A stretch of DNA of 32,306 bases from a virus (Duplodnaviria; Caudoviricetes), in IMG/VR virus record IMGVR_UViG_3300029823_000384, positions 1 through 32,306 of that record; one strand, 5' to 3'. A program made the translations under genes and the position numbers. The notes under the pieces are model-generated. The model worked only from the letters and a program-made list of their open reading frames with translations, ran no database searches and was not told the DNA's origin. Positions 1-31,834 of this stretch are shown here, in pieces (positions within the stretch are counted from its first letter, which is position 1; each line of letters begins with the position of its first letter).

Positions 1-735
1 TTTACTTGGCGATAAAATAACAATGTCATCCATATATCTGATATAGCGCCGTATCCTGAACGTACGCTTTGCAAACTGATCCAGCTCATTCATATATAAG
101 TTTGCAAACATTTGTGATGTGAGATTTCCTATTGGGATTCCGATATCGAACAGCCGAGTACCTTCACTAAAATTTTGACTTAATGGCAGGCCAAACGGAG
201 TGTCTTCGGATTCGATAATAGTATGAAAAAGTTTCATTAAATCCGAGTCGTCTATCTTCGAGGCCAAGATATTAAGCAATACTTGATGGTCAACGCGGTA
301 AAAAAATTTTGCTATGTCAAGTTTGAGATAATACATTTTTTCGTATTTGCAATCCAACCGCAGCCAATAGTTTATGCGTTTGACCGCAGCGTGAATGCCG
401 CGTCCGGGGATACATGCATAACTGTCTAAAATGTAGGACCGTGAAAAAATTGGGTTTACTATGCGGTAAACAGCCCATTGGAGGACGCGGTCTCTAAACG
501 GCAGCGCCATTACAAGCCGGCGCTTTGGTTCATAGACATAGAATTCACGGTATCTGCCAACTTTATAAGAATGATAAATCAGTTCGTTCTGAAGTTCTAT
601 TAGGTTTTCTTCCAAATTAGCCGAAAAGGCAAGGACTTCAGGGCAATACCTTTTGTTTTTTCGCGCGGAGAGATACGCATTATAAAGATTTTCGTAATCG
701 TAAATTTTAGGATATAAATTCTTGTAACGCTTCAT
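1..735 (-). CDS. DGR reverse transcriptase (3' part beyond left edge)
   Basis: Not in ORF track; hand translation from ATG at 735 (GGAG RBS upstream): MKRYKNLYPKIYDYENL...YEPKRRLVMALPFRDRVLQ...YLKLDIAKFF...GIPIGNLTSQMFANLYMNELDQF...YIRYMDDIVIL. Has the DGR-type GxxxSQ motif and catalytic YMDD; frame open to base 1. Confidence 0.96.
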   Translation of the reverse strand, partial: MKRYKNLYPKIYDYENLYNAYLSARKNKRYCPEVLAFSANLEENLIELQNELIYHSYKVGRYREFYVYEPKRRLVMALPFRDRVLQWAVYRIVNPIFSRSYILDSYACIPGRGIHAAVKRINYWLRLDCKYEKMYYLKLDIAKFFYRVDHQVLLNILASKIDDSDLMKLFHTIIESEDTPFGLPLSQNFSEGTRLFDIGIPIGNLTSQMFANLYMNELDQFAKRTFRIRRYIRYMDDIVILSPSK

Positions 736-906
736 TGCAATCTCTCCTGAAATAAATATTATTGTGCTTTGCGGAATTCGCTGCTGCTAATATCGGCATA
801 CACAATCATACAATTTTTTGCCGTTTATCGGCATGGAAACAGACCCCTTTATCCCCTGTACCGGAATCAAACCACGTAGGTTTGATACATCTGACTTTTG
901 GGGTAG
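736..906 (-). ncRNA. DGR TR-RNA 3' spacer (structured region between TR and RT)
   Basis: Hairpin ATCAAACC/GGTTTGAT (866-886), TGCCG/CGGCA hairpin (about 819-833), and CCCC...GGGG complementarity; position matches the DGR spacer used in cDNA priming. Confidence 0.6.
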
Positions 907-1017
907 AGCGGCGCGAAACCCGTGGTTCGAGTTCGTGTTGGTACGGGAATTGTTCAAGTACAAATAGAAAACGCCAGCGTTCGTGCCATTGCTCCAGTAG
1001 CCGCCACGCTCCGCAAC
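907..1017 (-). repeat. DGR template repeat (TR)
   Basis: 111-nt ungapped match to 1543-1653 with 11 mismatches, 10 at TR adenines (coding strand). TR reads VAERGGYWSNGTNAGVFYLYLNNSRTNTNSNHGFRAA, with 23 adenines and 7 AAY codons. Confidence 0.97.
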
Positions 1018-1385
1018 TAACGGCCTGTCCCCTGATAACGGTTTGTATTAACGGATTTTATCCAGCCTCCAACCATTCTGCCTATTTCAATGGCCATTCC
1101 CGACCATATCTCATATTTTTTAAATGGAAGGAATCCAAGGCTTTGAGAAAGTCTCAAATACGCTTTTAGTTTGGCCACTTCTACATCGAGCTCTTGTAAA
1201 GTAGTTTTTTTATAATACTTTTTACTTGCTTCAATAACTCTCTCTAAAATAATATCAAGGCAATGTTTAATATCAGCAGCCAAAGCAAATTTCTCTGATT
1301 TTGGGAATTGAGCCAAAGCGCCATATCCGTATTTAATCATATCGAAAACTTTTTGCAGTATTTTCAAGCTCTCCAAAAATAACAC
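1017..1385 (-). CDS. avd: DGR accessory variability determinant (Avd, four-helix bundle)
   Basis: LKILQKVFDM...FPKSEKFALAADIK...KKTTLQELDVEVAKLKAYLRLS...EIGRMVGGWIK typical of Avd; lies between target and TR. Real start may be TTG at 1376. Confidence 0.93.
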   Translation of the reverse strand: MLFLESLKILQKVFDMIKYGYGALAQFPKSEKFALAADIKHCLDIILERVIEASKKYYKKTTLQELDVEVAKLKAYLRLSQSLGFLPFKKYEIWSGMAIEIGRMVGGWIKSVNTNRYQGTGR

Positions 1386-1415
1386 CGTCCGTTAAAAAAA
1401 CACCGTCTGCGATAG

Positions 1416-1424
1416 ATTATAACA
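1416..1424 (-). promoter_or_regulatory. Putative extended -10 promoter for avd-TR-RT
   Basis: - strand TGTTATAAT (TGnTATAAT) in an AT-rich gap about 30-40 nt upstream of avd; no well-spaced -35. Confidence 0.5.
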
Positions 1425-1485
1425 CTATTTTATAATTTTATAACAAAATGTTATTTTCTAACGGAGTACGTTATTTTCTAAAATT

Positions 1486-1509
1486 TTTACCCGGCTATCG
1501 CCGGGTAAA
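1486..1509 (-). promoter_or_regulatory. DGR target-recognition hairpin downstream of VR
   Basis: Perfect 10-bp stem TTTACCCGGC/GCCGGGTAAA with 4-nt loop (GATA on coding strand, GRNA type), 21 nt after the target stop codon. Confidence 0.85.
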
Positions 1510-1530
1510 CAGAATACAGCGTTACAAGTA

Positions 1531-2898
1531 TCAGGCTTCAAAAGCGGCGCGACACCCGCGGCCCGAGTCCGTGTAGGGACGGGAATTGCTCAAGTACAAA
1601 TAGAAAACGCCAGCGCTCGCGCCATTGCTCCAGCAGCCGCCACGCTCCGCAACATATTCGGAATTTGCGCCAGTACCCTGATACTGATAATCATTACCAA
1701 ACTCAGCACGGCCTGTATTATCGGTAGTACTCGCGATGGCGTGCTTTGCGACTTTTACATCAGTATTTAAGGCGGTTACATATCTGTTACTCGAAGTATC
1801 TGACATTTGTATGCCGGTATCCATTTCATTAACATATAAATAACCCATCCCGCTGCTGCCAACCTTGAGTTTTAATCCCGTAGTCCATTCGTATATATTT
1901 CCGTTGAGGTCGTACGCGCCGTTGGTGCGGCCAGTATGACTGGTAAGGTTTTTCCCTGCCTCCCATCCTGATTTTCTGCCTGTTCCGGTCAATGCACGTC
2001 CTGAAATAGTCGGATCGGCTATAAATGTAATATTGTTGTCATCACAATCTTTAAGACTACTATTATTCCCGTAAGGTCCCCAGCGGTTCGAACCGAATCG
2101 CTCCGGACCTAAAATCATAGAATAGATTCCAAGTGAAACCCATTCATCGTCTGATATTAAATGGATGCTTAAATCTTTTCCTGAAACTGTATCAGAGGCA
2201 GCGCAGGCAGCGGCAGCTTTATCAATATTAATATTAGTCCAAGGTATAGTACCTTGTTTTGAAACTGCTATGGTACTTGTGCCTTCATCTGATGGAGTAG
2301 AATCAGATCGTGACATTTGGTATTTCGCAGCGTAAAACGGCCTAAAAAGAATCGTATTATAATCAATCCCGTTCTCACCGGTTGATGGGCGATGACGCAC
2401 GAAGAAACCAACGGGCCTTGAATTATATCCACAGTTAGCAGGTTTTATCAACTGATATACGCGAAAGCCCGGCTGGTATGTCCATGTAGAATACCCAAGC
2501 TGAAAGTCGTGGACTTCCAATGACGAATCGCAAAATTTAACAGGTGTCCCGTTTGCATAGCCGCCGCTCGGTGCGCCCGGAAAAATTGTAATTGAAATCT
2601 TGTTTCCAGCCGCCGAGCCACCGGCAGATACTAAATGATAATTGTTACCAATTTTAATCATAGCGGACTTGTTGATATTGCCTGTGAGGGTACCGCTGCC
2701 ATAAATATTAACATTCTGGCTACCTGCTGCTACAGATTCGACTGCTAAACCAACTTCAGAAGACAGTGTATGTGGAACATCAGCCCAATGTTTACGCTGC
2801 CAAAGAGAAGCAAACACTTCCACATCATCACTGTTGAGGGCAAAATTATCAATTGGAAGTTCCGGCGTTGTTTTTGGGGTTGGATTTATGATAATCAT
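1531..2898 (-). CDS. DGR target protein, C-terminal CLec/FGE-like fold; probable receptor-binding protein
   Basis: Motifs AKYQMS, PWTNI, HLISDDEW, GAYDLNGNIYEW, RGGxW; VR at extreme C-terminus; last gene of the tail module. Confidence 0.9.
   Translation of the reverse strand: MIIINPTPKTTPELPIDNFALNSDDVEVFASLWQRKHWADVPHTLSSEVGLAVESVAAGSQNVNIYGSGTLTGNINKSAMIKIGNNYHLVSAGGSAAGNKISITIFPGAPSGGYANGTPVKFCDSSLEVHDFQLGYSTWTYQPGFRVYQLIKPANCGYNSRPVGFFVRHRPSTGENGIDYNTILFRPFYAAKYQMSRSDSTPSDEGTSTIAVSKQGTIPWTNINIDKAAAACAASDTVSGKDLSIHLISDDEWVSLGIYSMILGPERFGSNRWGPYGNNSSLKDCDDNNITFIADPTISGRALTGTGRKSGWEAGKNLTSHTGRTNGAYDLNGNIYEWTTGLKLKVGSSGMGYLYVNEMDTGIQMSDTSSNRYVTALNTDVKVAKHAIASTTDNTGRAEFGNDYQYQGTGANSEYVAERGGCWSNGASAGVFYLYLSNSRPYTDSGRGCRAAFEA
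1543..1653 (-). repeat. DGR variable repeat (VR) at 3' end of target gene
   Basis: Matches TR; encodes VAERGGCWSNGASAGVFYLYLSNSRPYTDSGRGCRAA; homology ends after GC-rich CGCGCCGCT (IMH/IMH* boundary). Confidence 0.97.
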
Positions 2899-5054: not shown

Positions 5055-6138
5055 CTGTGTCCTCCGTTATAGCTACGCTGCCCTCGACCGGAATCTGATA
5101 ATCATCAAAAGCAGAGGAAAGAGTTATATTGCCTGCGTTCCCGTTTAAAAGCGTGTTCGACACATCGGCGACTCCGCTTACCGCAAGGATGGCCGCTTCC
5201 ACGCGGGCAGTTCGGATAATGCTGTCCGAAAATGCCAAGGATTCTAAATACTTTTGAACGGCGGTTTCTACGGGAGCCTGTATCCCGGCGATATCAACAC
5301 CGGTTTTGAGAGCCAGCGAAACCGAAATGTTAACCGGAAATTCTGTCACTGTTGAAATTGTTACACAGTGGCCGATAGGGGCAATCCCATAGCCTTGCCC
5401 GTGCGGTTCCGGATCAATTACATTCTGTACGGCCTGAATCAGGCTTTCGCTTGCCGGCTTATTTTCCGGTGCGACAATCACGCATTGAACCTTCCCTCCC
5501 TCATCATTTGGAGTAGGGAATACCTTTACAGCTCCGACACCGGGTATTTTTAGAATTTGCTGCTCATAATCGGCAACATTCCCACCGAAAGGCTGCTCAT
5601 TGATTTCTTTATAAAATCTCGTGCGCAGCTCATCATCAGACTCTTCCTCTTCGCCGGCAGCCAGTACTTCCGAAAGTGTAGCCGTACCAAGTCCCGCGAT
5701 ATTATCAATCGGCAGCAAGACACCAAAATAACTGTTACCGACAACGCCGGGCTGCTGGCACTGCAGCCGATATGTGCCGGATGATATTTTATTAATTACG
5801 GTATATGCAATACTATCCGCACCAAATTTTGTTCCGATAGGCACGTCCATTGGGCCGCCGCTCTCGTCGGTAAAAGATCCTTTTCTGATTGCATTTGTCG
5901 CGGCGTAACGGTTTACGCCATGTTCCGCGCAGCGGCGTGTTAAATCATCTCCGAGAGCGGTATCAGGCATTGTAGCGTCTTGAATGTTATCAGCGTAAAA
6001 TTGCTGCTCGACAAGTTGTGCAGCCACTGGCGCTAAAGCGGTATAAATAATACTGCCCTCGCGTATATCAACCTGATTTTTTAAATTATCCGGTATATTG
6101 TTCAGCATTTCCTGCATAAAGTCATCAAAAGTTTTCAT
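5038..6138 (-). CDS. Baseplate J/gp47-family protein (XkdT-like)
   Basis: DIREGSIIYTALAP, EEESDDELRTR, GGNVADYE, IPGVGAVKV, APIGHCVT. Confidence 0.92.
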   Translation of the reverse strand: MKTFDDFMQEMLNNIPDNLKNQVDIREGSIIYTALAPVAAQLVEQQFYADNIQDATMPDTALGDDLTRRCAEHGVNRYAATNAIRKGSFTDESGGPMDVPIGTKFGADSIAYTVINKISSGTYRLQCQQPGVVGNSYFGVLLPIDNIAGLGTATLSEVLAAGEEEESDDELRTRFYKEINEQPFGGNVADYEQQILKIPGVGAVKVFPTPNDEGGKVQCVIVAPENKPASESLIQAVQNVIDPEPHGQGYGIAPIGHCVTISTVTEFPVNISVSLALKTGVDIAGIQAPVETAVQKYLESLAFSDSIIRTARVEAAILAVSGVADVSNTLLNGNAGNITLSSAFDDYQIPVEGSVAITEDTDVSVS

Positions 6139-24365: not shown

Positions 24366-25019
24366 TTATTTTTCAATTTGAATTTTCGGCGTTTCTTCAA
24401 CGACAATAGCGCTGTTGATCCTTTCCAGTATTTCTTGTCTGTCAGCTTCGGTGCTTCTTTTATTGGCGCTCATAAGCTGTAAAAAATTTTCCCATGTTGC
24501 CGCTTCTGAAATAAAATATGCGTACTGCTCCGAATCAGAACGGCTGAAACCTCCTATGGCCATAAGATTTTTAACGTCGGTTTTGAAATTTACGCCTTTC
24601 AGTTTTTTCTTTAAAGCTGTTTTTGTTTCAGTGGCACACGGAAGTTGCTTTATAACCTCTTCAACAGTCATCTTGGTATAGCTTTTCTGCCACAAATTAA
24701 CGAGCATTCGGGATGCGGGCGCGGTAAGCTTGTATTTTTTTTCTTCAGTCACCGCGTCGGTATATGCGCTGCCGAAAATCTCTTTAAAAAAACTGGGATA
24801 GACTTGCTTGAGGTTTTCCGACATGGTAGCCGTAACTTTATTTGCTTTTGTCCCTGAGTATGCCACGGTTTTCAGCTTAGTGTTTTTCAGGTCGTCATCG
24901 CTGATTTTCAGGAAAAACCCTTCCAGCTCGTTTTGTTCTTCTTTAAGCTTTGTGATAACGTCTTTTATTTCTACAAGGCGGTCAACTTTGTTTTGAATTT
25001 CACTGCGGTTAAGAGCCAT
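24366..25019 (-). CDS. Hypothetical early protein
   Basis: 217-aa co-oriented ORF with AAGGAG RBS and N-terminal coiled coil. Confidence 0.75.
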   Translation of the reverse strand: MALNRSEIQNKVDRLVEIKDVITKLKEEQNELEGFFLKISDDDLKNTKLKTVAYSGTKANKVTATMSENLKQVYPSFFKEIFGSAYTDAVTEEKKYKLTAPASRMLVNLWQKSYTKMTVEEVIKQLPCATETKTALKKKLKGVNFKTDVKNLMAIGGFSRSDSEQYAYFISEAATWENFLQLMSANKRSTEADRQEILERINSAIVVEETPKIQIEK

Positions 25020-25263
25020 ATTTTTTATTCAGCTCCTTTTGCAAAGCTGCGGCGCATTTTTCGCATATATTAATACCGCAAATGTTCATTACAGCTTCGC
25101 TGCTTCCGCAAAAGCGGCAAACTGGGACATGCGGATTAATTTTTACGCCGTTGCCGCTGCTTTCAACATCAACAGCCATTCCCGGTGTAAACCCTATCTC
25201 AGTCCGTATTTGCTTTGGAATAGTTATCCCGTTTTTTGACGTTAGCTTTTTTGATGTTTTCAT
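25009..25263 (-). CDS. AbrB/MazE/SpoVT-family DNA-binding protein with C-terminal CxxC pairs
   Basis: GITIPKQIRTEIG..PG.AVDV...CRFCG...ICEKC. Confidence 0.88.
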   Translation of the reverse strand: MKTSKKLTSKNGITIPKQIRTEIGFTPGMAVDVESSGNGVKINPHVPVCRFCGSSEAVMNICGINICEKCAAALQKELNKKYGS

Positions 25264-25894: not shown

Positions 25895-26800
25895 TTAATA
25901 TGTTATAATTTTCATCGTTTTAGCCATTGCCATTAATCCTTTATAGCTGGTATCTTCGTTATCTTTGGCATTGCTGTATAAATTGACCGCGCCACGGATT
26001 CCCTGTTCGCTGCGTGCAATAGTGTGCAGCAGTTCAATTTCTTTTTCCTGCCCATTATCGGCTAAAGCCGGAAAAAGCAATTTAATGTCTTTTTTAGTAA
26101 CTTGTAGCGTTTTGCGAATATTAATCAGTTTGGTGCGGTTCCGTATTTGTGCAAACGCCGGACGGCTGCGGCCGTTTGTAACGGTTTCCGGATTGCCGAT
26201 TAAAGTAACGCCCAATTCAGGGTTGCTGTCGGTGAATGCTCGAATTGCCTCAATGGTTTTGATTGGAAGGTGCTGGGCTTCGTCAATAATCAGTACTTTG
26301 CGGCCACCGCGCAAGGCCTCGTCTATTTCCATCCACATATCGTCTTTTCTTCCGGTCGGCAATTTTAACTGCCGGCAAAGGAGTTTTAAAAACGCGTTTA
26401 AGCTTGAAACGCACGGATTTACAGTCACATAAATTGCGCTGTTCGGGTATTCGGCAGCGTATTTCAGTGCCGCTTTTGTTTTGCCGATTCCGGCATCGCC
26501 GCATTCATCGGCAAGCCCGCCTTTTAAATGGCACATTCTAATAGTTGCGTACACGCCTTCCGAAATAGACGTTGGAACATAATTCGGAGAAACATATAAT
26601 GCCTTTGCCTCGGCCTTCAGGTCGAAAAACTCACACAGCCGGTTTTCAAATTTTTCCACATCGCCGTTATAAGTGCCTTTGCGGTATGTACTGAGAGTAC
26701 CTGTACTGTAACCGATGTTGGCGGCGGCTTTTGATTGGCTTCCAACCTCCGTAATGTAAGCTTCCAGTTTTTGCTGGAGTTCAGGATTGTACTGTTTCAT
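25895..26800 (-). CDS. MuB-like transposition AAA+ ATPase
   Basis: N-terminal HTH, Walker A GDAGIGKT, Walker B VLIIDEAQHL; overlaps transposase stop. Confidence 0.93.
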   Translation of the reverse strand: MKQYNPELQQKLEAYITEVGSQSKAAANIGYSTGTLSTYRKGTYNGDVEKFENRLCEFFDLKAEAKALYVSPNYVPTSISEGVYATIRMCHLKGGLADECGDAGIGKTKAALKYAAEYPNSAIYVTVNPCVSSLNAFLKLLCRQLKLPTGRKDDMWMEIDEALRGGRKVLIIDEAQHLPIKTIEAIRAFTDSNPELGVTLIGNPETVTNGRSRPAFAQIRNRTKLINIRKTLQVTKKDIKLLFPALADNGQEKEIELLHTIARSEQGIRGAVNLYSNAKDNEDTSYKGLMAMAKTMKIITY

Positions 26801-28785
26801 ACATCTGCCCCTTTCTTTTCGTTGTTTCTAATCATTCGTGATATATCTACAATAGGGATTTCTTCCCCGCCGGAAGCAACTTTGTTTTCCCGCTGTTCAT
26901 TCGGAGTAACCATTTCGACGATATGATTATCATCCGAAGGAAGAAGCAAGCCTGTTGTGCTGTGTTTTGCAGCACGGACATATACGTCAAGCAAATTGAT
27001 ATGGCCGTATTGTGATACTACCAATTCGCGTTTTTCGTCTGCTAAATCTTTTAGTCCGCGTTTCAGGCGGCGCTTTTCGTGCATCGCGTCCCTGACACCT
27101 TCTTTGTCGGCTCCGTAGGAAAGCATCATATCCGTTCGCAGCGGAGCGGTCATTATGAACTTTTCATTTTCATCGTAAATGCGGACTTCATTAAGATTTT
27201 CCGGGTCGTAACGTAGAAATACTTTTTTACCGGTGAAATTGATAATTAGTTCGTCATTGAAATAATATAAACGTTCTCCGCAAATAGTAAGGTGTACTCC
27301 GTTTTTCCCCACGGTTTGCAGGCGTGTGCTGCGCATCATCATAAGGTTCAGGTCTTCCGGCGCGGCACGGCGTATAACACGCGGCAAATGTTCTCTATAT
27401 ACTTGGTCTTTCGTTTTTCCCTTGTCTGCCGCAACCTTGCCGTTGTACGGCTGTTGATTAAAATAACCGTCAATCATATTGTTTACGACCTGAATAAGCT
27501 CGCCGTCTGTTGGAATCTGTCCGGTTTTCAGTTTATGTTTTAGCTTTTCAGGTTTGGCGACTACATTGGAGCCGCAGTATGTATCAAACAAACGGCTTAA
27601 AAACGTGAAATTTCGGAATTCCCGTTCAATTATTTTTGCCTGCGCGTTTCTCGGAATGGCATTAACCATCTGAATTCCGAGGCGTGTTAATATCGGCGTT
27701 GGCAATTTAATATCGACTTTCTTTTTTCGGGTACGATGCCCCGTCCCGCCAATGTCAATGTTCAAATATTCCCGGCCATTGTCAACGTAAATGTATTTTG
27801 GAAGTCCGTACCTCATACACGCTTTCCGCAGCGCCGCCAATGTGCTGTCGGAACTTGGGTTTTCCGTTACTACCCATCCGACATAAATTCCGCTCCGTGC
27901 GTCCAAAAACGCCGATAACGTCATTCTGTGCCGCTGTTCCGTCCCATCGTCGGATTTCGTGATAACGTCTATCGTATGACCGTCCGCTATCCAGTAGTCA
28001 TTGGAAGCCATATCATCGTAAAAGCGGTCGACAAAAATCCCATAGCGGTCGTTATACGCTTTTTCACCTTTGCGTGCCAGCGTCGCAACCGGTTTTGAAA
28101 ACGCTTTTGCCATTCGGTAAAAGGTATCATATGACGGCATTTGCGGGAGCAGTTCTGGGCGTTCTTCCTGTACGATAAACCGCGTCGCTTCCTCACATTT
28201 GCTGACTGGCAGCGCCCGTTCGTCCAAATATACATAAAAGAAAATATCTTTAATAGTTTTTGGAACTCTCGAAGTGCCTTTTTTCCAGTGGCCGCGTTTA
28301 TCCACAAGACCGTCAAGGTTATTTTGCTTAAATGCCGCTTGTTTGCGGTATAATATATCTTTTGATATTTTAACGTCAGGGTAATTATCTCGGCATTTAC
28401 GCACAAATTCCATGTCAGCGGCAGCTTTTGAACCATGAAAGCTGTTTCGGAAATTCTGCCAGTCTGAAAGAATATTTTCCCACAGTTCAATTTCCTGACG
28501 CTGTTCCGCTGTAAAGTTTTCCAGTGCCTTAGACTTTGCCGGGGCAGTCTTTTTTTTGGCTTTCTGTAGTGAATCGGGAACTTCCCCGTACTTTTGTTTG
28601 TAGTATTTTACTTGGAGCCTTGGTTCAAGGGCATCTAAAGGAATAAGATACATTTTGCGATTTCGATTATTGGTCGTCGTCTGGCTTATCAATGAACCAT
28701 TTAACGCCAATGACTTTACATATCGGTCACTGCATCCCTTGAGTTGGGCGACTTCCTTGACCGTAAGAAGTTCCAATATATTCAC
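26797..28785 (-). CDS. MuA-like DDE transposase
   Basis: N-terminal HTH (LTVKEVAQLKG), WIADGH (D), YVDNGREY (D), AKIIEREF (E), C-terminal VFLRYDPENL. Start may be TTG 28776. Confidence 0.94.
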   Translation of the reverse strand: MNILELLTVKEVAQLKGCSDRYVKSLALNGSLISQTTTNNRNRKMYLIPLDALEPRLQVKYYKQKYGEVPDSLQKAKKKTAPAKSKALENFTAEQRQEIELWENILSDWQNFRNSFHGSKAAADMEFVRKCRDNYPDVKISKDILYRKQAAFKQNNLDGLVDKRGHWKKGTSRVPKTIKDIFFYVYLDERALPVSKCEEATRFIVQEERPELLPQMPSYDTFYRMAKAFSKPVATLARKGEKAYNDRYGIFVDRFYDDMASNDYWIADGHTIDVITKSDDGTEQRHRMTLSAFLDARSGIYVGWVVTENPSSDSTLAALRKACMRYGLPKYIYVDNGREYLNIDIGGTGHRTRKKKVDIKLPTPILTRLGIQMVNAIPRNAQAKIIEREFRNFTFLSRLFDTYCGSNVVAKPEKLKHKLKTGQIPTDGELIQVVNNMIDGYFNQQPYNGKVAADKGKTKDQVYREHLPRVIRRAAPEDLNLMMMRSTRLQTVGKNGVHLTICGERLYYFNDELIINFTGKKVFLRYDPENLNEVRIYDENEKFIMTAPLRTDMMLSYGADKEGVRDAMHEKRRLKRGLKDLADEKRELVVSQYGHINLLDVYVRAAKHSTTGLLLPSDDNHIVEMVTPNEQRENKVASGGEEIPIVDISRMIRNNEKKGADV

Positions 28786-28810
28786 CTGCCTTTCGGCTGA
28801 TTATCAAGTT

Positions 28811-28877
28811 TAGCCATGCCATCATCGGCTGCGGGAGGCTATCCCCGCAGGACGGAGCTTCCGCTCCGTTTCGGCTG
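28811..28877 (-). ncRNA. Hammerhead ribozyme type II, copy 1
   Basis: - strand GCC-GAAAC-GGAGC(GGAA)GCUCC-GUC/CUGCGGG(GAUAGCCU)CCCGCAG-CCGAUGA-U-GGC-AUGGCUA; loop UAGCC can pair with tail GGCUA. Predicted cut 28851/28850. Confidence 0.85.
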
Positions 28878-28895
28878 TTCATTAATGGCTGAATA

Positions 28896-28904
28896 TGCTA
28901 TAAT
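28896..28904 (+). promoter_or_regulatory. Extended -10 promoter for 28926..29528
   Basis: TGCTATAAT followed by AGGAGGT RBS (28914-28920). Confidence 0.7.
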
Positions 28905-28925
28905 TCTTTAAATAGGAGGTGTATT

Positions 28926-29528
28926 ATGCATAAGTTTGAAAACTATATTCCCGAATACGACATTCCGCTAAAGTCTGTTTTACCTTGTTTGGAATATGAT
29001 GTTGCGGTATTCTGTGATTGCTTAAAATGGATCATCCCAATGCCCCTTCCAAAGTACCTACGAAAATTCAGTGAATGTTTGATTTATTATTCGAACCGAG
29101 TGGACGAGTTGAAACCTGATACATTTCCTGAAGCATATCGTGTGTACATTATGGATTACCGCTTGAATATTCTATTTGCGGCACTTGATACAACTGGAAA
29201 AATTGCAACCTATTTTTCTAAATATGGGAAGTACGCCCATGATATTGAAGATTATTGTTATGGCGATGGCGAGTTGATAGGGGATGCTATTTTCCCTCAA
29301 ATGAGTTACGATTCTAAGTCCCTTCTGAGTTTTGAAAAGCGTTATGGTTTTATGCCAGTAGATGAACTTTCCATGGCTTCTGCCCTTGTCTTTCAAAATG
29401 AAGAGCTTCTCGAAAGAAGGCAAATATCGCAGTTCCAAACAGCCTTACTGATGGAAAAATTCAGAAGCAAAAACTTGATTGACTGGAAATCGCTTGTGAA
29501 CCGTGCTAAAGAAGATTTCGGGTTCTAA
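28926..29528 (+). CDS. Hypothetical protein, paralog A (antisense to early operon)
   Basis: Own promoter and strong RBS; shares motifs with 29774..30310. Confidence 0.85.
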   Translation: MHKFENYIPEYDIPLKSVLPCLEYDVAVFCDCLKWIIPMPLPKYLRKFSECLIYYSNRVDELKPDTFPEAYRVYIMDYRLNILFAALDTTGKIATYFSKYGKYAHDIEDYCYGDGELIGDAIFPQMSYDSKSLLSFEKRYGFMPVDELSMASALVFQNEELLERRQISQFQTALLMEKFRSKNLIDWKSLVNRAKEDFGF

Positions 29529-29655
29529 GTAAACGCTCTGCTCTCTTGGAAACAGGCTGATACGGATTTTCTGAAGGTTCAAAAACACTTTTTGCTGCTA
29601 ATTTTGTCCGTCCCTGAATTTGCACTTCGGGGGCGGCTTTTTTTGCGTTATCCAT
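29506..29655 (-). CDS. Small hypothetical protein, 49 aa (not in ORF track)
   Basis: AGAAAGGAG RBS directly after hammerhead 2; MDNAKKAAPEVQIQGRTKLAAKSVFEPSENPYQPVSKRAERLLRTRNLL. Confidence 0.55.
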   Translation of the reverse strand: MDNAKKAAPEVQIQGRTKLAAKSVFEPSENPYQPVSKRAERLLRTRNLL

Positions 29656-29670
29656 AAGGTTCTCCTTTCT

Positions 29671-29735
29671 GCCCTGCCATCATCGGCACAGGTGGGGCGG
29701 TTCCTGTGGACGGAGCTTCCGCTCCGTTTCGGCTG
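29671..29735 (-). ncRNA. Hammerhead ribozyme type II, copy 2
   Basis: - strand GCC-GAAAC-GGAGC(GGAA)GCUCC-GUC/CACAGG(AACCGCCCCA)CCUGUG-CCGAUGA-U-GGC-AGGGC; loop GCCC can pair with tail GGGC. Predicted cut 29709/29708. Confidence 0.85.
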
Positions 29736-29741
29736 GGTTTG

Positions 29742-29750
29742 TGCTATAAT
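29742..29750 (+). promoter_or_regulatory. Extended -10 promoter for 29774..30310
   Basis: TGCTATAAT, identical to 28896-28904, 23 nt before ATG. Confidence 0.68.
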
Positions 29751-29773
29751 TGGAAAAAAGGGGATGATTTTAT

Positions 29774-30310
29774 ATGCCAAGAGCTAAATTTGATTCAAAT
29801 CAGGAACATATTCTGCAAATGGCTCGTATTGCCAATTTGAAAAGCTATTCTACCGATTTGCTTTACGATGCCAAAATAATCTACAAAGAGCAATTACAAA
29901 AGTATAGGGAGTGGTTTTTTGAAGACGATTTGAAACACATAGAAGATAAAATTAAAGCATTGGAATCTATTAAAATAGTGCCTATTAATAAATCGCGCGT
30001 CTACATTGTTTCCTGCGATACCTTTATTTGCTTTGCTATGTATAATATGGACGAATGCGTTGTGGACAACCTTTGCAATGTCTTTAATTTAGCCGGGATT
30101 CCGCTGGATGAGACTGAGTTGGTAAAGCCGGTTTTTAGAAGTACCTTATTTGTTTTCAAGGGAAAAGAGCTGCTTTTATCCGAAGAAATCTCTACTACCC
30201 AGCTTGCTAAACTAATGGCTATTTTTCACAAAGAAAATTTAGTTAATTACTCCGGAATTCGTTACGATTTTTATGGGAAACCACGGCGGGATACAAATCA
30301 TCGTAAGTAA
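29774..30310 (+). CDS. Hypothetical protein, paralog B (antisense to early operon)
   Basis: Own promoter; shares motifs with 28926..29528. Confidence 0.82.
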   Translation: MPRAKFDSNQEHILQMARIANLKSYSTDLLYDAKIIYKEQLQKYREWFFEDDLKHIEDKIKALESIKIVPINKSRVYIVSCDTFICFAMYNMDECVVDNLCNVFNLAGIPLDETELVKPVFRSTLFVFKGKELLLSEEISTTQLAKLMAIFHKENLVNYSGIRYDFYGKPRRDTNHRK

Positions 30311-30809
30311 CTGGCATGTTATATCTTTCAGCGTTTTTGCAAATACAGCGTATTTTCTCAAGTGCTTCCATATGAGAGGCTCTCAGGTATTTTGAGTTGA
30401 CATCTGAAAACAAGTTCTCAAGCATTTTCATTTTTTTTAATCTGCTTATCGTTACATCCTCAAATATAATTCTTAGATAAATTTCTTCTAACACTTGTCC
30501 TTGCACGTGTTTCTCAGCATAAGACAATCTTTCCCGCTCCTGAACATCCGTTTCAGGGGCGGTTTCTTCATCCAGCCAGTCAAAGCACAGCCTTGCAAAC
30601 CATTTTTCCGCTGTTTCCGGATCTGAACTGTAATGCCCGCCCCAAGTATCGCCTGCTGGCGAAAGGTGCCATACAGCGAACGGTTCGGGAACTTTTTTAT
30701 TTGGATGCTGGGCTAAAACTACTTTGTTTTTATAATTTGCTAATACTTTATAACCGTTGGATAAAATGCTGCCAATTTGAGGATACTGCATAAAAAGGCT
30801 TCCTTTCAT
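30243..30809 (-). CDS. Hypothetical early protein
   Basis: Likely start ATG 30791 after AAAGGAAG; N-terminal PEPFAVW...WGGHY...A..WF.R segment. Confidence 0.75.
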   Translation of the reverse strand: MKGSLFMQYPQIGSILSNGYKVLANYKNKVVLAQHPNKKVPEPFAVWHLSPAGDTWGGHYSSDPETAEKWFARLCFDWLDEETAPETDVQERERLSYAEKHVQGQVLEEIYLRIIFEDVTISRLKKMKMLENLFSDVNSKYLRASHMEALEKIRCICKNAERYNMPVTYDDLYPAVVSHKNRNEFRSN

Positions 30810-30812
30810 AAA

Positions 30813-30995
30813 TTATTTACCTGTATATCGGTTCCGGCCGTTTGCTTCCAAATCATCGCCAATTTGCTTGCGTACACGGCAATCCAGTATGTTAATAAAA
30901 TCTGCCCAAGCTTCGAGCGGGTTGTCAGATTGGCAGTTACGCAGAGCATCGTCAACCGCGTTGTTTATGTAAAACAGTAAATCCGATTTTTTCAT
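30813..30995 (-). CDS. Small hypothetical early protein
   Basis: GGGAGCGG RBS; packed between neighbours. Confidence 0.65.
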   Translation of the reverse strand: MKKSDLLFYINNAVDDALRNCQSDNPLEAWADFINILDCRVRKQIGDDLEANGRNRYTGK

Positions 30996-31010
30996 ATCCG
31001 CTCCCGTTTA

Positions 31011-31232
31011 TTATGCGCTGCAGGCATCAGAATACTTTTCACCGTATATTGCTTCTATTTCGGCGATTTCAGTATCTTTAAAATGCCGTTCGCCGTGTAA
31101 TTTTGCCGTTAGGTTTTGTTGGCACAAGCCGAGGCTCTCGGCTACTTCTTTCAGCGCAATGTCCTTTTGTACCGACTGTGTTTTAACCCACGTTCCAAAT
31201 GGCGTTAAAGGGCGCGGATTTCGTTTTCCCAC
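31011..31232 (-). CDS. Cro/Ner-like HTH regulator
   Basis: LTPFG.WVK...LKEVAESLGLCQQNLTAKLHGER; first gene of the early operon; AGGAGG RBS, GTG start. Confidence 0.85.
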   Translation of the reverse strand: MGKRNPRPLTPFGTWVKTQSVQKDIALKEVAESLGLCQQNLTAKLHGERHFKDTEIAEIEAIYGEKYSDACSA

Positions 31233-31279
31233 TGTATTTCGCCTCCTGCGGAAATTCGTTAAAATATAACCTATTTCGA

Positions 31280-31308
31280 TAGACTATAACGACTTTGTGT
31301 GATATTAT
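31280..31308 (+). promoter_or_regulatory. Putative repressor promoter
   Basis: TAGACT-17 nt-TATTAT with TG extension. Confidence 0.6.
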
Positions 31309-31337
31309 TTAATTGTGTTATTACTAATACAATAATA

Positions 31338-31366
31338 AGTATAATAGAATACTTTCTAAAAGTCAA
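31338..31366 (-). promoter_or_regulatory. Early lytic promoter with operator palindrome in spacer
   Basis: TTGACT-17 nt-TATACT; spacer holds TAGAA-N4-TTCTA (31345-31358); imperfect second copy at 31375-31388. Confidence 0.78.
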
Positions 31367-31378
31367 TAGATATTTTGA

Positions 31379-31834
31379 ATGTATTCTAAAAAAGGGGGCA
31401 ACTTTTTGAATATATACGAAAATATAAAAAAATTATGTAAAATAAAAGGAATGACTATTTCAAGCTTAGAAAGTGCCGCTAATCTTAGTAATGGCGCAAT
31501 CTCCAAATGGAAAAACAAAATGCCTCAAGCAGATAATTTATATAACGTTGCTAAGATTTTAGGGACAAGCATAGAATTTATTCTAACTGGAAATTTAGAA
31601 GATAGTCAGGAAAATAGAGAAAGCGCTAAATATAGTAATGATGATTTATCACTTATCGAAAAATATCGTAAATTAGACGACTGTGAAAAGCAAATTATAC
31701 TTGGCAAAATTTCAGAAATGATTTATAATAAAAAAATGGAAGAAAGTTCCGAAAAACTCTCTTCCAAAGTATTATGGAATTTACTTGCTGATTCAGATTA
31801 TAAGGACCAGTTAGTTCCAAAACATAAAGAATAA
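31379..31834 (+). CDS. XRE-family prophage repressor
   Basis: IKKLCKIKGMTISSLESAANLSNGAISKWK...VAKILGTSIEFILTG; likely start TTG 31406 after GGGGG. Confidence 0.9.
   Translation: MYSKKGGNFLNIYENIKKLCKIKGMTISSLESAANLSNGAISKWKNKMPQADNLYNVAKILGTSIEFILTGNLEDSQENRESAKYSNDDLSLIEKYRKLDDCEKQIILGKISEMIYNKKMEESSEKLSSKVLWNLLADSDYKDQLVPKHKE

Follow-up and report, generated by a model that had tools for sequence, protein, structure and literature searches.

Two type II hammerhead ribozymes, co-oriented on the early strand of a Mu-like phage, probably split its early transcript into linear messages, and the near-identical DNA that encodes them probably serves as the point of recombination at which an 858-bp cassette is gained or lost. 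Judged from the sequence, we give this reading a probability of roughly 0.6. The locus itself is a real and well-formed example of a known arrangement, and the cassette carries an accessory gene that lies antisense to the operon in which the ribozymes are found.

Phage setting and organization of the locus

The stretch of DNA analyzed (32,306 nt; hereafter the window) constitutes a virus record of 32.3 kb and is laid out like a temperate phage of the Mu type. The minus strand encodes MuA, a MuB-like ATPase, GemA, Mor and gp27, and the plus strand the repressor (Table 1). The likely early promoter matches 10 of 12 consensus bases, and takes its presumed role from the Mu layout. MuA is 83% identical to a homologue in a Ruminococcaceae genome, and the named relatives appear to point to an Oscillospiraceae-type host. 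The early operon also holds a MazE/AbrB-like small gene (25009-25263). At the other end of the window lies a complete-looking DGR, the template repeat of which matches the variable repeat at 90%; the two repeats differ at 11 positions, each of them a T in the plus strand and an A in the coding strand. Nothing in the 858-bp unit matches these repeats.

Along the early (minus) strand a ribosome-binding site (RBS) and a start codon come directly after each ribozyme, those of a 49-aa ORF after the upstream copy (HH1) and those of MuA after the downstream copy (HH2). On the plus strand each hammerhead stands back to back with a promoter-like site, an RBS, a gene of 200 or 178 aa and a terminator belonging to that gene. 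Extended -10 sites of this kind number three on the plus strand of the window, and two of the three adjoin the hammerheads. Two co-oriented copies flank genes in a prophage operon, as is characteristic of clustered prophage hammerheads.

Table 1. Positions of features in the window, grouped by locus.
Feature	Position	Strand	Remarks
HH1, upstream type II hammerhead	29667..29734	-	U4C core; predicted cut 29709/29708; RBS directly behind
HH2, downstream type II hammerhead	28809..28876	-	U4C core; predicted cut 28851/28850, 65 nt before MuA start
Direct repeat, copy 1 (28 nt)	28850..28877	+	5' half of HH2
Direct repeat, copy 2 (28 nt)	29708..29735	+	5' half of HH1
Segment between predicted cuts	28851..29708	-	858 nt; as DNA, cassette absent from L001
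49-aa ORF behind HH1	29506..29655	-	Spans terminator hairpin of 200-aa gene; 23-nt overlap with 3' end of the same gene
Extended -10 promoter-like site (TGCTATAAT)	28896..28904	+	Back to back with HH2
200-aa accessory gene, unnamed family	28926..29528	+	Antisense to early operon
Intrinsic terminator, 200-aa gene	29608..29636	+	
Extended -10 promoter-like site (TGCTATAAT)	29742..29750	+	Back to back with HH1
178-aa antisense accessory gene	29774..30310	+	Distant homologue of 200-aa gene
Intrinsic terminator, 178-aa gene	30534..30562	+	Similar to 29608-29636
MuA, Mu-type DDE transposase	26797..28785	-	First gene behind HH2
73-aa Ner/Cro-like gene	31011-31232		Downstream of likely early promoter
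Early promoter, likely	31338..31366	-	
Repressor	31379-31834	+	Divergent from early promoter
DGR, complete-looking	1-2898		RT, cut by window edge
DGR RT-14 RNA	762-908		
DGR template repeat	907-1017		
DGR Avd	1017-1385		
DGR target gene	1531-2898		Variable repeat 1543-1653

Two type II hammerheads with a U4C core

A preliminary description of this DNA had claimed two co-oriented hammerheads 858 nt apart, together with an exact 28-nt direct repeat, at the same spacing, that makes the copies identical on the 5' side of the cut. Each of these points is borne out: the ribozymes lie on the minus strand with the cleavage-site C at 29709 and 28851, the piece bounded by the cuts runs from 29708 to 28851, and the identity takes in the 5' half of the ribozyme and extends one base beyond the cut. 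A second block of 17 nt is also repeated between the two. Read on the minus strand, both copies have the form GAAAC-stem III-GUC/stem I-CCGAUGA-UGGC (the slash marks the cut), so that the type II core (GAAA, NUH and CUGANGA, with three stems and stem II open) is present in each with one substitution, U4C. This substitution, which the preliminary description did not mention, is accompanied by an additional U ahead of stem II. A pseudoknot joining loop I to the 3' tail can form in both copies, with 4 bp in HH1, 5 bp in HH2 and different sequences; comparison of the copies reveals compensatory changes, with the other core positions, the three stems and the pseudoknot all kept.

The Rfam model Hammerhead_II (RF02276) matches at 28808-28876 only (39.4 bits; cut-off 37) and misses HH1 even at E<=1. 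A covariance model built from 46 other family members – gathered by a pattern drawn from HH1 and HH2, and hence biased towards them – gives 70.6 bits at 29667-29734 and 66.6 bits at 28809-28876, with the next match at 15.9 bits. Among the 46 members stems I and III covary (134 cells altered on both sides vs 40 in shuffles), and the loop and tail of HH1 recur with different stem I pairs at several other loci. On the plus strand of the window neither the covariance model nor Rfam finds a hammerhead, and in 28500-31400 Rfam finds no further family at E<=1. Provided that both predicted ribozymes are active, excision of the 858-nt piece is likely. The U4C change lowers activity in vitro, yet allows viroid infectivity (PMC3088659); a tested natural example of the exact core, U4C plus extra U, was not found in the supplement text of that paper, the figure PDFs of which are poorly readable.

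Within the ribosome-binding region of MuA (28779-28798) lies a second short copy of the hammerhead 5' arm (CAGCCGAAA), which is kept in three related loci (L001, L002 and L005) and could pair alternatively with the GGC arm.

The ribozyme family and the copy before MuA

The motif pattern is estimated to occur in 1500 stretches of IMG/VR and 5000 of metagenomes. Both stems form in 250 of 273 pattern matches (from 253 loci and the window), and a pseudoknot of at least 4 bp is found in 168 of 219 family members, compared to 20% with shuffled partners. The U4C core is present in 14 of the 219 unique members; L001, L002 and L005 have it. A Shine-Dalgarno sequence, start codon and ORF lie within 50 nt on the 3' side of 164 of 221 hammerheads (random positions: mean 29, maximum 38). 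Upstream, 111 of the 136 hammerheads with enough DNA sit directly after a sense stop codon: 110 have a sense stop only, eight an antisense gene only, one both and 17 neither. A small sample yielded 14 other neighboring pairs of hammerheads, spaced by 258-2092 nt, three of which also share an identical stem III. The association of clustered prophage hammerheads (RF02276) with Mu-like genes is already in print (PMC10085705), and processing of polycistronic RNA is a role suggested for such hammerheads in a review (PMC6765202).

Conservation of the copy before MuA was assessed in 79 of 80 MuA loci (L296 is without a gene start), of which 69 have at least 250 nt upstream. All 69 carry a hammerhead in front of MuA. 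A script places the cut no more than 130 nt from the MuA start in 61 of the 69 (41 of 49 after removal of duplicates), with no hits in 69 on the opposite strand and none in 69 inside MuA; the covariance model places a hammerhead within about 200 nt of MuA in the remaining eight. HH2 is a fixed part of the MuA leader, and belongs to the phage rather than to the 858-bp unit. In a locus from a separate search, L006, the covariance model finds no hammerhead before MuA.

Further hammerheads lie downstream of MuA in the relatives L006 (5197-5267) and L003 (8696-8760). Loci L266-L274 have two or three hammerheads in the early region, of which only the copy before MuA is U4C – a hint that cleavage may be tuned there – and in L328 (2328-2395) a hammerhead-like motif before MuA has the cleavage triplet GCC instead of GUC.

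Presence and absence of the 858-bp unit

Comparison with L001 (95% identity in MuA) provides a natural pair: L001 equals the window minus exactly the 858-bp unit, with five mismatches in 600 nt upstream and none in 100 nt downstream. In one metagenome, run X7, the unit is a minority allele; its contig has a depth of 5.8 compared to about 70-150 in the flanks (rough contig depths, from one run), and other contigs, which represent further alleles, connect the flank of HH2 with the second terminator or the early promoter region across unassigned DNA. The preliminary description had looked to the presence or absence of the unit, with breakpoints at the ribozyme, as a check. Presence and absence are indeed seen, in L001 and in run X7. 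However, the two DNAs are identical over 27 nt, 26 of them ahead of the cut and one beyond it; the crossover could fall at any point in this interval, and ordinary recombination suffices.

In L002 the 3' half of HH1 (46 nt identical to the window) is joined to another stem III and another antisense gene. For pairs of loci with the same upstream and a different downstream gene, similarity continues past the cut through stem I in 20 of 21 cases, and stem III is kept in 27 of 43 pairs that share only the downstream gene (neither set of pairs is independent). Because similarity extends past the cut in pairs that have swapped genes, exchange appears to take place across the motif and not at the scissile bond. 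The simplest origin of the with/without pair would be unequal crossover or deletion between the ribozyme copies, and the plus-strand terminator hairpin (that at 30534..30562 included) is likely to be a second anchor for recombination or swapping. RNA-level recombination at the cut site was considered because the switch between the window and L001 includes the cut; in view of the family-wide swaps it was dropped as a general rule. Among the contigs of four DNA runs – which show presence, not absence – no back-joint of a DNA circle was found.

Antisense accessory genes beside the hammerheads

Both ORFs of the preliminary description, of 49 aa on the minus strand and 200 aa on the plus strand, stand as given there. 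The 200-aa protein has 29 matches including itself, the other 28 at 46-63% identity, and no family in Pfam, PHROG, PADLOC or NCBIfam. A Foldseek search with its AlphaFold model (pLDDT 80.8) gave no match at E<=0.001 in PDB or BFVD; the best VIA-align Z is 2.5 and Atlas matches reach at most 0.88, all of them unnamed, which is no proof of a new fold. The protein is absent among 401 sampled genomes of a related host's order. It is distantly homologous to the 178-aa protein (probability 91.7%, E 7.8e-7), for which there is an 88% homologue labelled Caproiciproducens. A PADLOC match of the 178-aa protein (E 0.004) was taken as chance. The two genes define an unnamed protein family, antisense beside hammerheads, that is also represented in L297/L298, L306/L307 and L152.

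Of the five distinct members of the 200-aa family found in loci, four run antisense with a hammerhead on either side, the spacing of the two hammerheads being 858, 881, 909 and 1204 nt; the fifth (L254/L255) is antisense in a Mu-like early region with no hammerhead. More generally, 21 antisense units of promoter, RBS and ORF occur among the 65 MuA loci with at least 900 nt upstream. In 14 of these, corresponding to eight distinct proteins, the promoter-like site abuts a hammerhead, and the other seven appear from their N-termini to resemble the divergent repressor. The association of hammerheads with antisense genes may be partly positional, because a hammerhead precedes MuA in nearly all loci.

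The predicted 858-nt piece would be the antisense of the entire predicted mRNA of the 200-aa gene. Small ORFs related to the 49-aa ORF, with the same AAPE motif, are present in L002 and L005. In the window the plus-strand terminator hairpins (29608-29636 and 30534-30562) are each encoded within a minus-strand ORF with an AAPE-x-x-IQ-x-R-like motif, and this arrangement of terminator within ORF recurs in L002 (about 5385-5415) and L005 (about 5460-5490). In L003 (2040-2280 and 3053-3690) inverted repeats of ~21 nt, three forward and two reverse, flank short antisense ORFs of the early region; by pairing, these might draw the antisense stretch into one long stem, and so perhaps allow its excision without a ribozyme.

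What the ribozymes may do

According to the reading we favor, the accessory genes would be transcribed in the lysogen; upon induction the early transcript would read through them as antisense and damp them, as in noncontiguous operons. Self-cleavage – probably partial, owing to U4C – would then detach the antisense stretch from the MuA message, at the 5' terminus of which a hairpin and pseudoknot would stand. The excised 858 nt would form a linear RNA with 5'-OH and cyclic-phosphate ends, at once an mRNA for the 49-aa peptide and a full-length antisense of the mRNA of the 200-aa gene. Cutting the antisense stretch off the transposase message is the likely job of the ribozyme here. Several observations count against this account. 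U4C lowers activity in vitro (PMC3088659), and L006 is without a hammerhead before MuA. The cargo homologue of L254/L255 does without a hammerhead, so insulation is not required; 110 of the 136 family members have no antisense gene upstream, so that insulation cannot be what the ribozymes serve in general, and their association with antisense genes may come from nothing more than a common insertion slot; and the cut site falls within the switch between the window and L001. The antisense effect seen in S. aureus phage 80alpha did not hinge mainly on RNase III (PMC11087260).

The effect of cleavage on MuA might also be the reverse. The 5'-OH end made by the glmS ribozyme of Bacillus is degraded by RNase J1 (bioRxiv 10.1101/2023.03.12.532304), hence the cut could destabilize rather than protect the MuA message. 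Were the ribozyme a brake of this kind, the MuA message would be sent to RNase J1 decay and transposase thereby limited, with U4C tuning the rate; besides the glmS precedent, the conserved position before MuA and the restriction of U4C to that copy in the L266-L274 group fit such a brake. We nonetheless consider it unlikely, given that the 3' product begins with a fully paired hairpin and that many unrelated small genes are preceded by the same motif. A fully paired 5' hairpin hinders 5' exonucleases, and should protect the 3' product.

Alternatively, U4C copies may cut little, and be retained as structured modules of the leader that carry an RBS and at which recombination is anchored. U4C is found in both copies and in L001, L002 and L005, it lowers activity in vitro (PMC3088659), and flanking genes are swapped at the motif. 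Against this reading, the rest of the core, the three stems and the pseudoknot are kept, HH1 and HH2 differ by compensatory changes, and a U4C viroid variant was active enough in vivo (PMC3088659). We regard this reading, too, as doubtful.

Joining of the ends of the 858-nt piece, by the reverse hammerhead reaction or by RtcB, into a stable and functional circular RNA is improbable. Such a circle might, for example, silence as a long-lived antisense RNA, or be a circular message from which the 49-aa peptide is translated. The ends are chemically compatible by established hammerhead chemistry (PMC6765202), homologous cargo genes lie between two hammerheads in three other phage groups, and re-cleavage could be slowed by U4C. 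It is also true, as the preliminary description had noted, that joining the ends restores a complete hammerhead motif, but the same is true of every pair of co-oriented type II hammerheads: a segment that could be excised and re-joined comes with the clustered layout as a generic by-product. The fold of the circle is not exceptional, with a circular MFE of -192.8 kcal/mol compared to -186.8 +/- 6.9 for 40 dinucleotide shuffles (z -0.86) and 55% of bases paired; four related segments are likewise no more structured, and segment lengths vary freely. In the type II topology the ends are held only by the 3-bp stem II, for which ViennaRNA predicts a probability of 0.0004 – weak evidence, as the intact HH2 itself receives 0.0014 and pseudoknots are outside the model. 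No endless ORF runs round the circle although 858 is a multiple of three (the longest stop-free run is 90 codons). RtcB (PF01139) was found in none of three genomes with related prophages, but this carries no weight here, as the genomes may be incomplete and none is that of the window's host. Perreault et al. sought circular or spliced products of clustered prophage hammerheads and, in the available text of PMC3088659, report none detected (data not shown there). The ambisense circle of the preliminary description finds no support either: the 200-aa gene has a plus-strand promoter-like site and terminator of its own in the DNA, the plus strand carries no hammerhead and the fold is not unusually structured. 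Low-level circles may arise as by-products of cleavage, with no role needed.

A bolder version is a long shot: that in Mu-like phages of Clostridia, on induction, paired hammerheads excise a full-length antisense copy and close it into a stable circle, silencing the lysogen-expressed accessory gene and freeing the transposase message. If true, bacteria would have a natural circular RNA with a regulatory role, encoded on a swappable cassette that is bounded by ribozymes.

That the unit is a retrozyme-like element mobilized through RNA by the prophage RT, as the preliminary description speculated, is very improbable: an RT is encoded in the window and the presence/absence break takes in the cut site, but the RT belongs to the DGR (with Avd, RT-14 RNA and a template/variable repeat pair, the template repeat matching the DGR target gene and not the unit), the unit is a single copy in the window without long repeats beyond 28 nt, HH2 is the orthologous MuA-leader ribozyme of 69 of 69 relatives, and swaps across the family do not cluster at the cut.

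The reading we favor, of linear messages and a DNA cassette, offers two leads on the question, left open in PMC6765202 and PMC10085705, of what the many hammerheads of Mu-like prophages are for. Ribozyme DNA probably acts as a swap point for gene cassettes, as shown by a natural with/without pair; and the ribozyme marks a place taken up by antisense accessory genes, from which it would sever the transposase message.

Comparison with known systems

Clustered prophage hammerheads have been known since 2011, when circles were raised as a possibility (PMC3088659). The locus resembles the clusters of Perreault et al. 2011 in its type II topology, in the pseudoknot between loop I and the tail, and in having several co-oriented copies round single genes of a Mu-like early operon, each before an RBS. 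As far as the available text of that paper goes, the locus differs in that the principal gene between the copies runs the other way and has a promoter-like site and terminator to itself, in that both cores are U4C, and in the natural presence and absence of the unit, the join falling inside the repeated ribozyme sequence.

Noncontiguous operons are known from S. aureus prophages (tha/ith; Rostol et al. 2024, PMC11087260). They share with the locus an antisense gene that has its own promoter within a phage operon, together with a switch between lysogeny and induction, which here would be a predicted one; at the level of sequence the layout, extended -10 site, RBS and terminator are all present here. 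The antisense gene of the window has no assigned function, and hammerheads are present here, whereas the available account of PMC11087260 has no ribozymes.

Retrozymes (Cervera et al. 2016, PMC4918200) likewise have two co-oriented hammerheads, 600-1000 nt apart, the cuts of which define a monomer. Their hammerheads lie in direct repeats (LTRs) of 300-400 bp, compared to 28 nt and a 17-nt block here, and their RNA is non-coding and about 70% paired (PMC4918200), as opposed to a conserved 200-aa gene and 55%. Retrozymes occur as dispersed copies with target-site duplications, PBS and PPT, and their circular RNA accumulates in vivo; of this unit, which lies in the DNA of a bacterial phage, there is one copy in the 32-kb record. 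Ambiviruses and viroid-like circular RNAs (Forgia et al. 2023, PMC10162972) also have ORFs on both strands of a ribozyme-bounded unit; relative to the ambiviruses as described in the available text, the unit is DNA-encoded and has no RdRp, no opposite-strand ribozyme and no compact fold. The 200-aa protein falls well short of RdRp length, and no family in Pfam, PHROG or NCBIfam matches it.

In the open-access literature we found no hammerheads described as cassette-swap points or as insulators of antisense phage genes. What is new, relative to these systems, is the nature of the gene between the hammerheads: it is an accessory gene in the opposite orientation, belongs to an unnamed family and recurs beside hammerheads in distant Mu-like phages. 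The locus further contributes a natural pair with and without the unit, and a slot in which antisense accessory genes recur.
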